From Gemmatimonadota bacterium (GTDB lineage: Bacteria > Gemmatimonadota > Gemmatimonadetes > Palauibacterales > Palauibacteraceae): a DNA stretch of 64,000 nt. The stretch lies in NCBI GenBank assembly GCA_965116475.1, contig OZ220691.1:480001-544000 (forward strand), given 5' to 3'. The notes under the pieces were generated by a model. It was not told the DNA's origin, did not search any database, and saw only the letters and a program-made list of their open reading frames with translations. The translations under genes and the position numbers were made by a program. This document shows, one piece after another, positions 21,922 to 22,817 of the stretch (position 1 is the stretch's first letter; every line of letters starts with the position of its first letter).

Positions 21922-22176
21922 CTAGTGCGGCGTAACGACGCTGACGAAGCGGCGGCCTCGCCGGCGGTGAAATTCGACCTGTCCATCGGCGAGCGCGAAC
22001 AGCGTGTCGTCCTTCCCGCGGCCGACGTTGCGGCCCGGGTGGAAGGGCGTGCCCCGCTGCCGGATGAGGATGTTGCCCGCGATCACGTGCTCGCCGCCGT
22101 ATTTCTTGACGCCGAGATACTGCGGGTTCGAATCGCGTCCGTTGCGGCTGGAGCCGACACCTTTCTTGTGCGCCAT
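21922..22176 (-). CDS. rpmA: 50S ribosomal protein L27
   Basis: [24 protein letters not shown]...RQRGT...[10 protein letters not shown]; the ATG overlaps the rplU stop. Confidence 0.97.
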
Positions 22177-22817
22177 CAGTCGCCTTCCTTCGCCGCAATG
22201 GCCTTGTCCACGTCGCTCTTGAGGATGCGGCCGTCCTTGCCCGTCCCCTCGATCGCGCCCAGGTCGAGTCCGTGCTCCTCCGCCAGCTTCCGCGCGACCG
22301 GCGTGATGTCCACCGGCGCCGGCTCGGCCGCCTCGGGCTCGGGAGCCGCTTCGGCTTCCGGAGCAGCCTCGGCCTTCGGGGCGGCCTTGGGAGCAGCCTT
22401 GGCCTTCGGCGCGGCCTTGGGCTTCGGAGCGGCCTTGGGCTTCGGAGCGGCTTCCGGCTCCGGCGCCGCGGCCGCCGGCTTCGCCGCCGCTTCCAGCGGC
22501 TCGTCGGGCAGATCGATGCCGACGATGCGGATCTCCGTGTAGCCCTGGCGGTGCCCCTGCTTCCGCCGGTAGCCCTTCCGCCGCTTCATCTTGTAGACGA
22601 TGATCTTTTCGCCGCGCCCGTGGCTCACGACCTCGGCCGCGACCGAGGCGCCAGCCACGCACGGGGCTCCGACGTGAACATCCCCGTCGTGCTCGGCGAG
22701 CAGCACGTCGTCGAACTTGACCGTGTCCCCGGGCTCGGCCTCGAGGGAAGGGATGCGGAGTACCGCGTCCTCCACCGCTCGAAACTGCTTCCCCTGGGCC
22801 TTGAAAATCGCGTACAT
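22176..22817 (-). CDS. rplU: 50S ribosomal protein L21 with Ala/Pro/Lys/Glu linker and C-terminal E3-binding (PSBD)-like domain
   Basis: [13 protein letters not shown]...[28 protein letters not shown], then AAPKPK-type repeats, then [33 protein letters not shown]. Confidence 0.95.

Follow-up and report, generated by a model that had tools for sequence, protein, structure and literature searches.

The window analysed here is a stretch of 64,000 nucleotides from a bacterium of the phylum Gemmatimonadota (family Palauibacteraceae; contig OZ220691.1, positions 480,001 to 544,000), and the element under study is its rplU gene, which encodes a ribosomal protein L21 (bL21) of 213 amino acids. Behind the ribosomal core this protein carries a flexible linker and a peripheral-subunit-binding domain (PSBD; E3_binding in Pfam), a small module of the E2 chains of 2-oxoacid dehydrogenases. 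Few proteins are as conserved as the ribosomal proteins of bacteria, and PSBDs belong, in the textbooks, to a single class of enzymes, so that a fusion of the two is unexpected. That it is real and conserved, and that its tail is a PSBD, we consider very nearly certain. The same PSBD subtype is present on bL21, IF-2 and NusA within single genomes of two sister genera, a pattern that points to recruitment of a specific partner, through flexible tethers, to RNA polymerase as well as to the ribosome. It is probable that these ribosomes hold a partner protein on such a tether; for the window's copy we put the probability that the PSBD docks E3 (dihydrolipoamide dehydrogenase, LpdA, as a dimer) or E1 at roughly 0.4.

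Architecture and authenticity of the fusion

The sequence-only reading of the window had described a 213-residue L21 frame in an rplU-rpmA context, ending in a PSBD-like domain on an E2-type linker, and had named a profile scan for both domains as a check. The frame is present as described, and the boundaries then given for linker and PSBD hold to within a few codons, the linker being 22314-22505. Its parts are as follows.

22176..22817, minus strand: rplU coding sequence (bL21 core, linker and PSBD), 213 codons plus TGA; from the list of open reading frames, the sequence, Pfam and NCBIfam
22515..22817, minus strand: bL21 core, residues 1-101; PF00829, TIGR00061 and AlphaFold2 confidence (pLDDT) of 88-97 per 10-residue block
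22314..22505, minus strand: flexible Ala/Pro/Lys/Glu linker, residues 105-168; composition, tandem repeats and low pLDDT
22179..22313, minus strand: PSBD (E3_binding) and C-terminal helix, residues 169-213; PF02817, phmmer matches to solved PSBDs and the model

Both profiles score above their cut-offs in the rplU product, as the sequence-only reading had anticipated. Ribosomal_L21p (PF00829) reaches 126.2 bits (cut-off 27) over residues 1-101 and profile positions 1-99 of 99, and the NCBIfam model for L21 (TIGR00061) 118.4 bits against a cut-off of 43.7. E3_binding (PF02817) scores 56.6 bits (gathering cut-off 23.7; E 3e-15) over residues 171-203 and profile positions 3-35 of 36, a match spanning 22209-22307 in the DNA. 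NCBIfam matches of the tail are solely to E2 chains of 2-oxoacid dehydrogenases, all of them far under the whole-protein cut-offs, and the Pfam scan of the 213-residue protein gave no Biotin_lipoyl or 2-oxoacid_dh match, by which the protein does not count as an E2 acyltransferase. With phmmer, the domain matches the solved PSBDs 2PDD, 1EBD_C and 1W85_I at E values of 4-5e-8. In an AlphaFold2 model built on an alignment of 35 homologues, pLDDT falls below 50 at linker residues 109-125 and 133-166, and the tail is predicted to fold into two helices (173-182 and 200-212; pLDDT 84-88). The linker (residues 105-168) consists largely of Ala (27 of 64 residues), Pro (16), Glu (10) and Lys (9), and its DNA is GC-rich and tandemly repetitive, with an 18-nt period repeated 8.3 times and a 30-nt period repeated 2.1 times. 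A score above the gathering cut-off, a predicted two-helix fold and a flexible Ala/Pro-rich linker together identify the tail as a genuine PSBD on an E2-like arm.

Across the 35 homologues, whose identity declines to about 60%, the PSBD has 12 invariant columns and a further 8 with conservation of at least 90%, giving 20 of about 40 positions at that level, and the linker cannot be aligned. Conservation of the PSBD equals that of the ribosomal core, and the arm between them is free to vary in both composition and length.

An assembly artefact, that is, a misassembly or frameshift joining rplU to a fragment of an E2 gene, has a negligible chance of accounting for this architecture. Repetitive, GC-rich DNA such as that of the linker does break assemblies, and one genome (G086) has the L21 core and the PSBD on two separate contigs. 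Against this stands a contig from an independent sequencing run (X2), which spans 22100-22593 and thereby bridges the start of rpmA, the PSBD, the linker and part of the core with zero differences; a second contig extends coverage to 22900. Support from reads had been named earlier as a test of the fusion, and the bridging contig provides it. The stop of the rplU frame also overlaps the rpmA start codon, core and PSBD matches lie within one open frame in ten genomes, and the architecture recurs in 119 of the 120 best homologues, which come from several sources. Misassembly was rejected on the bridging X2 contig and on the presence of both domains in these 119 homologues. A further run (X1) covers the entire stretch, but it may be this DNA's own source. 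In a close relative, the PSBD and the linker-core junction are each covered by contigs from an RNA library (X3), which as sequences are compatible with expression of rplU-PSBD. In a related strain (run X4), 17 and 4 bases are absent at 22478-22499, an in-frame loss of 21 nt or seven linker codons, and linker length is therefore polymorphic.

Distribution, further carriers and origin of the domain

A database search returned 1497 homologues at E<=0.001, and the following counts refer to the best 120 of these 1497. PF00829 and PF02817 are both present in 119, the exception being P0043, which is without most of the PSBD. By motif count, 106 proteins carry one PSBD, 11 carry two, two carry three and one has none. 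The linker of the 119 ranges from 16 to 106 residues (median 51). Named homologues are annotated as L21 of Candidatus Palauibacter or of metagenome-assembled genomes of Gemmatimonadota; the hosts belong to an uncultured, marine family of this phylum.

The fusion was at first assumed to be phylum-wide, an assumption rejected when genome surveys confined it to one family. In a phylum sample of 201 genomes, including four unpublished ones (G057, G097, G157 and G182) that were counted in tallies only, L21 was found in every genome and the loci were compared by eye. Among the matches listed, from which 271 weaker ones are excluded, a PSBD in an L21-sized frame at the L21 locus occurs in the window's own family only. 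Ten genomes of this sample encode L21 core and PSBD in a single open frame of 182-216 residues, and the remaining PSBD matches among those listed lie mostly in frames of at least 390 residues. The taxonomic survey that the sequence-only reading had called for points the same way and marks the fusion as a conserved family-level trait. Within the order (145 genomes), a match to the L21-type PSBD at E<=1e-8 is present in 107 of 113 family genomes (108 of 114 including the window's own), as against 0 of 31 genomes of the sister family. The best listed match falls in a frame of at most 350 residues in 99 of the 114 family genomes, a count by frame length in which the L21 core was not checked frame by frame.

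Two congeners with single-contig genomes of about 3 Mb, G322 (L020) and G328 (L021), have an L21 without PSBD. The protein of G322 has 168 residues with a long Ala/Thr/Glu tail and that of G328 has 128 residues with a short acidic tail; both genomes retain PSBD matches in E2-sized open frames. These congeners have lost the PSBD of L21 and are natural loss variants, and together with the copy-number variants of one to three domains they offer built-in natural comparisons.

Other appendages occur at the same end of the protein. In the sister family, the bL21 of G049 (L055:292-840) carries a basic tail of about 85 residues rich in Lys, Ala, Pro and Thr, without a PSBD, and the first half of the linker in the window, rich in Lys, may be what is left of a tail of this kind. 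In another family, bL21 ends in one C2H2-like zinc-finger motif (G187, L057:277-780; G105, L059:587-1027), for which zf-C2H2 gives 23.1 and 19.3 bits, under its cut-off of 25.2. Further members of the phylum have an L21 with a short acidic tail or no tail. The C-terminus of L21 thus tolerates attachments, among which the PSBD is the solution of one family.

The domain is also attached to other proteins. In five genomes of two sister genera (G248, G250, G251, G253 and G254), the nusA-infB operons encode PSBD-bearing IF-2 and NusA. IF-2 has one or two PSBDs between its N-terminal domain and its G domain, and NusA a C-terminal PSBD behind an acidic linker; Pfam confirmed these domains for L012, L013 and L016. 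Four of these genomes (G248, G250, G251 and G253) also have two PSBDs on L21, and G251 reaches five L21-type PSBDs over three gene-expression proteins. The copies on L21, IF-2 and NusA show one common signature (alignment A1). The window's own genome has three PSBDs only, on L21 and on two E2 chains. With the copies on IF-2 and NusA the question becomes wider, reaching beyond a link of the ribosome with metabolism to a partner that the gene-expression machinery has in common. The operons are located as follows.

L012: nusA-infB operon of G251
L013: nusA-infB operon of G254
L014: nusA-infB operon of G253
L015: nusA-infB operon of G250
L016: nusA-infB operon of G248

A profile of the L21/IF-2/NusA type, searched against 1.84 billion representative sequences, matched 7506 proteins at E<=0.001, and the best 150 of these 7506 were examined (Pfam was run on 148 of them, two having been part of the L21 set before). 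E2 chains bearing two or three PSBDs are numerous. Other carriers among them are a Ser/Thr kinase with three PSBDs, an IF2_N fragment, L21 fragments, a bL20 with a PSBD tail in which Pfam scores one stretch and two repeats are visible in the sequence, and a FYDLN_acid zinc-ribbon protein whose PSBD is nearly the same as the window's. Several proteins have the PSBD as their sole Pfam match, and there are also Gln/Ala/Gly-rich proteins with four PSBDs and proteins of 800-1300 residues with several. PSBDs on such other carriers are found in P0125, P0211, P0250, P0122, P0126, P0127, P0131 and P0247. The PSBD has thus been reused beyond E2 chains, given its presence on hosts as unrelated as the kinase, bL20, the FYDLN_acid protein and the multi-PSBD proteins. 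In the ribosome, bL20 is probably adjacent to bL21 on the solvent side, in which case the tail of bL20 would be a second tag in that place.

As for its origin, the tail has a mean identity of 45% to the PSBDs of the E2p type and of 38% to those of the second E2 type. The second type, with its common T-P...A-E-H-G motif, was rejected as the source on the higher identity and the DNA similarity to E2p. That similarity, between the tail's DNA and the linker-PSBD region of the genome's own E2p gene, is weak (65-66% over 250-290 nt; E 1e-6), and base composition may contribute to it. These comparisons fit the capture of a linker-PSBD block from an E2 gene.

Candidate partners of the L21-type PSBD

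To our knowledge, no function of a PSBD has been documented other than the binding of E3 or E1. The window's domain can be aligned gap-free with the E2p PSBD of Bacillus stearothermophilus (2PDD, 1EBD chain C, 1W85 chain I); its loop ([12 protein letters not shown]) resembles the loop of that domain, and GTGK-GR-LK-D is common to both. Arg135, Arg139 and Arg156 of the B. stearothermophilus PSBD, which we take to be hot spots for E3 and E1 binding and which were reportedly defined by Mande in 1996, Jung in 2002 and Frank in 2005, correspond in the alignment to 2PDD to Arg, Glu and Arg in the window's copy. The first and last are thus kept, as part of P-x-A-R-K in helix 1 and of the invariant loop G-R, and the window's genus has the most canonical helix 1 of all (T-P-V-A-R-K). 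Its linker is rich in Ala, Pro and Lys; in most genera the PSBD follows a strongly acidic linker.

A comparison was made between 110 unique L21-type PSBDs and 35 unique E2 PSBDs encoded at loci within this family. Mean pairwise identity is 68% within the L21 type and 65% within the E2p type. The positions that matter, with the number of sequences after each residue, are as follows.

Generic core (Ala4, Ala8, Gly20, Gly22, Gly25, Arg26, Asp31): invariant in the L21 type and in E2 PSBDs
Helix-1 position 5: L21 type Arg 74, Ala 12, Leu 8, Glu 6, also Lys and Ile; E2 Arg 35
Helix-1 position 6: L21 type Glu 70, Lys 13; E2 Arg or Lys 35
Position 9 (equivalent of Arg139): L21 type Glu 85; E2 variable
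Position 19: L21 type Glu 97; E2 variable (Ala 14, Glu 9)
Position 23: L21 type Lys 96; E2 Pro 32
Position 24: L21 type Asp or Glu 90; E2 Gly, Ala or Ser
Position 28: L21 type Leu 110; E2 Val 27
Equivalents of the three hot spots: L21 type Arg 74, Glu 85 and Arg 110 of 110; E2 Arg 35, variable and Arg 35 of 35
Mean net charge of the 39-residue domain: L21 type -2.6 (range -10 to +2); E2 +0.8

We favour E3 or E1 as partner of the window's copy because of its canonical helix-1 Arg-Lys and loop Arg, because this is the only known function of the fold, and because of a weak pass in structure co-prediction. The PSBD would then be a solvent-exposed docking tag on the 50S subunit that holds a protein partner near the ribosome, and the radius it sweeps would be set by the disordered arm. 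The named candidates for the window's copy would be the LpdA (E3) dimer or the heterotetrameric E1 encoded with LpdA, bound via the helix-1 Arg (Arg176) and the loop Arg (Arg197), probably with an affinity below that of E2 PSBDs. On IF-2 and NusA in the sister genera, the same tag would place this partner at RNA polymerase and at ribosomes during initiation. Both enzymes are encoded in the genome, in a cluster of lipA, E1 beta, E2p and LpdA genes (LpdA: TIGR01350, 509.9 bits); there is a second E1 beta-E2 pair, and both E2 genes lie away from the rplU locus. The genome also encodes a second LpdA-like flavoprotein (G000:C1:1745148-1746524; L005:1501-2877), which scores 359.4 bits with TIGR01350, under the cut-off of 408.8, and whose best model is 'FAD-containing oxidoreductase'; it is another possible PSBD partner.

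Co-prediction of the PSBD with the genome's LpdA, one of the checks proposed from the sequence, was run with two LpdA chains and the 46-residue PSBD on an alignment of 27 LpdA orthologues of the family. It scored 0.40 (runs 0.47, 0.40 and 0.36), the best of three controls scoring 0.00, with contact agreement between runs of at least 96% and partner pLDDT of at least 81. This is a weak pass: the mark is passed by 116 of 157 solved complexes and by 2 of 215 mismatched pairs, and both of these pairs, together with only 18 of the 157 complexes, scored 0.60 or less. The pass may also reflect mere likeness, since PSBD-E3 complexes are already among the solved structures.

Several findings weigh against docking of E3 or E1. 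Support from the co-fold is weak, and its three controls did not include the E2p PSBD, the positive control for such docking. The basic pair of helix 1, kept in 35 of 35 E2 PSBDs, is relaxed in the L21 type, where 74 of 110 domains have Arg at the first position and, at the second, 70 have Glu and 13 Lys. At the place of Arg139, Glu stands in 85 of the 110, and mean net charge is -2.6 against +0.8 in E2 PSBDs. The conserved surface peculiar to the L21/IF-2/NusA type (Glu19, Lys23, Asp/Glu24 and Leu28) suggests, at the level of sequence, a changed interface. Abundant ribosomes with one full-affinity PSBD per 50S subunit would be expected to compete with E2 cores for E3 and E1. Finally, the congeners G322 and G328 have lost the PSBD of L21 while their E2-sized PSBD frames stay, and the tag is therefore dispensable. 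The tethering of E3 or E1 put forward in the sequence-only reading is thus plausible at most: two of the three arginines and the weak LpdA co-fold speak for it, the relaxed helix-1 pair across the 110 L21-type domains against it.

Nearly as likely as E3 or E1, though on its own still doubtful, is a retargeted tag, that is, an E2-derived PSBD with a new specificity by which L21, IF-2 and NusA bind one other protein common to transcription and translation. It would account for the L21 type being a distinct subfamily with a near-invariant surface of its own, an acidic helix 1 and a negative charge, next to canonical E2 PSBDs in the same genomes. The identical signature on IF-2 and NusA in the five sister-genus genomes (L21 being two-copy in four of them) and the PSBDs on unrelated hosts argue in the same direction, as do copies that have Ala, Leu, Glu or Ile in place of the hot-spot Arg, among them the AALELAEEHG and AAEELAEEHG forms, with the remaining domain intact. 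On the other hand, no candidate for such a partner was found, documented PSBD function is limited to E3 and E1, and the window's copy has the canonical P-x-A-R-K and G-R and passes the LpdA co-fold, if weakly. The E2 PSBDs of the family are, moreover, also variable at the Arg139 position.

It is unlikely that the tail has no specific partner and plays a physical role, as an entropic bristle, a solubility or charge cloud, a protection from proteolysis or a site of weak multivalent self-association. The many appendages that the L21 C-terminus tolerates in the phylum (those of G049, G187 and G105 and the short acidic tails), the loss of the PSBD in two congeners and the wide variation in linker charge and length (16-106 residues) would suit such a role. 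It leaves unexplained, however, the 20 of about 40 PSBD positions that are at least 90% conserved, the exact signature common to three host proteins, and the fact that duplication involves the folded domain and not just the linker.

The alternative raised from the sequence, binding of RNA or of the neighbouring RNase G by this small helical domain, is highly improbable: rplU does lie directly downstream of an RNase E/G gene, and small helical domains on ribosomal proteins often bind rRNA, but a mean net charge of -2.6 (range -10 to +2) and a strongly acidic linker in most genera are unfavourable to RNA binding, and nothing in the analysis, which included no test aimed at that pair, points to a link with RNase G.

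If the partner is E3 or E1, the fusion would be a physical, structural link of central carbon and redox metabolism with translation; if it is something else, a docking fold would have been reused for a new interaction network. In the broadest form, the PSBD tags on bL21, IF-2 and NusA, with related ones on bL20, may be speculated to form an undescribed docking system that couples the transcription-translation machinery to a soluble partner, be it E3, E1 or a retargeted one, although we would not expect this to hold.

Comparable systems and gene neighbourhood

The closest known counterpart is the PSBD of E2 chains (PF02817; 2PDD, 1EBD_C with E3, 1W85_I with E1), with which the L21 tail has in common the sequence family, the predicted two-helix fold and the placement on an Ala/Pro-rich linker. 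It differs in its host, here a ribosomal protein without lipoyl or catalytic 2-oxoacid_dh domain, and in a helix 1 that is acidic and not basic across the family, with a negative net charge. E3BP (protein X) of eukaryotic pyruvate dehydrogenase complexes likewise has its PSBD on a non-catalytic chain purely for docking; E3BP, however, is an E2 paralogue built into the E2 core, whereas the carriers here are bL21 and, in the sister genera, IF-2 and NusA. The bL12 (L7/L12) stalk is alike in outline, since there, too, a part anchored on the ribosome is joined by a flexible hinge rich in Ala to a small globular domain for the recruitment of soluble partners, but it has no sequence relation to L21-PSBD, and it recruits translational GTPases at the factor-binding site, whereas bL21 lies elsewhere, on the solvent side. 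The long-form bL21 (NF008916 and NF008915 of NCBIfam, which are PRK12278 models with 223 and 216 positions) likewise joins an L21 core to a low-complexity extension, and CDD reportedly describes PRK12278 as an 'L21/unknown domain fusion'. The window's protein scores 134.8 bits with NF008916 (cut-off 193), the match stopping at position 173 of 223, and 91.8 bits with NF008915 (cut-off 281), stopping at 150 of 216. The last 50 or so profile positions do not match the window's PSBD, which sets the protein apart from the long form; none of 14 control genomes reached the long-form cut-off either.

A literature search that covered few of the subscription journals found no paper on a PSBD on L21, IF-2, NusA or another ribosomal protein. 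A preprint on IF-2 extensions (10.64898/2026.02.08.704698) does not mention PSBD, E3-binding, peripheral, dehydrogenase or Gemmatimon- terms, and the main text of the Palauibacterales paper (PMC10469786) does not mention L21 or rplU, ribosomal proteins, E3-binding, pyruvate dehydrogenase or dihydrolipo- terms. The PSBD, the linker and bL21 are each textbook matter, and their combination is picked up automatically by domain databases (precomputed Pfam). What is new is a known docking domain on new carriers and with a diverged surface.

The genes and sites around rplU are as follows.

21922..22176, minus strand: rpmA (bL27); PF01016 Ribosomal_L27, 132.7 bits; its start overlaps the rplU stop
22861..22889, minus strand: promoter-like site upstream of rplU (TTGACA, 17 nt, TAGTCT); weak
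22954..24507, minus strand: RNase E/G family gene upstream of rplU, given for context only; PF10150, 329.1 bits

The rplU stop (TGA) and the rpmA start (ATG) overlap in the sequence TGATG, as in a true rplU-rpmA gene pair, and 137 bases separate the end of the RNase E/G gene from rplU downstream of it. Of the consensus promoter claimed for rplU, the -35 hexamer stands, TTGACA being perfect at 22884-22889, but the -10 hexamer TAGTCT (22861-22866) matches TATAAT at three of six positions, and a sigma-70 and terminator scan of 21800-23050 called 0 sites by its criterion. Elsewhere in the window, on the plus strand, a gene for a MazE-type antitoxin (20360-20581; PF04014, 36.9 bits) runs over the start of one for a PemK/MazF-type toxin (20553-20903; PF02452, 48.7 bits), and by sequence these genes, at 20360-20906, look like an ordinary type II toxin-antitoxin pair.

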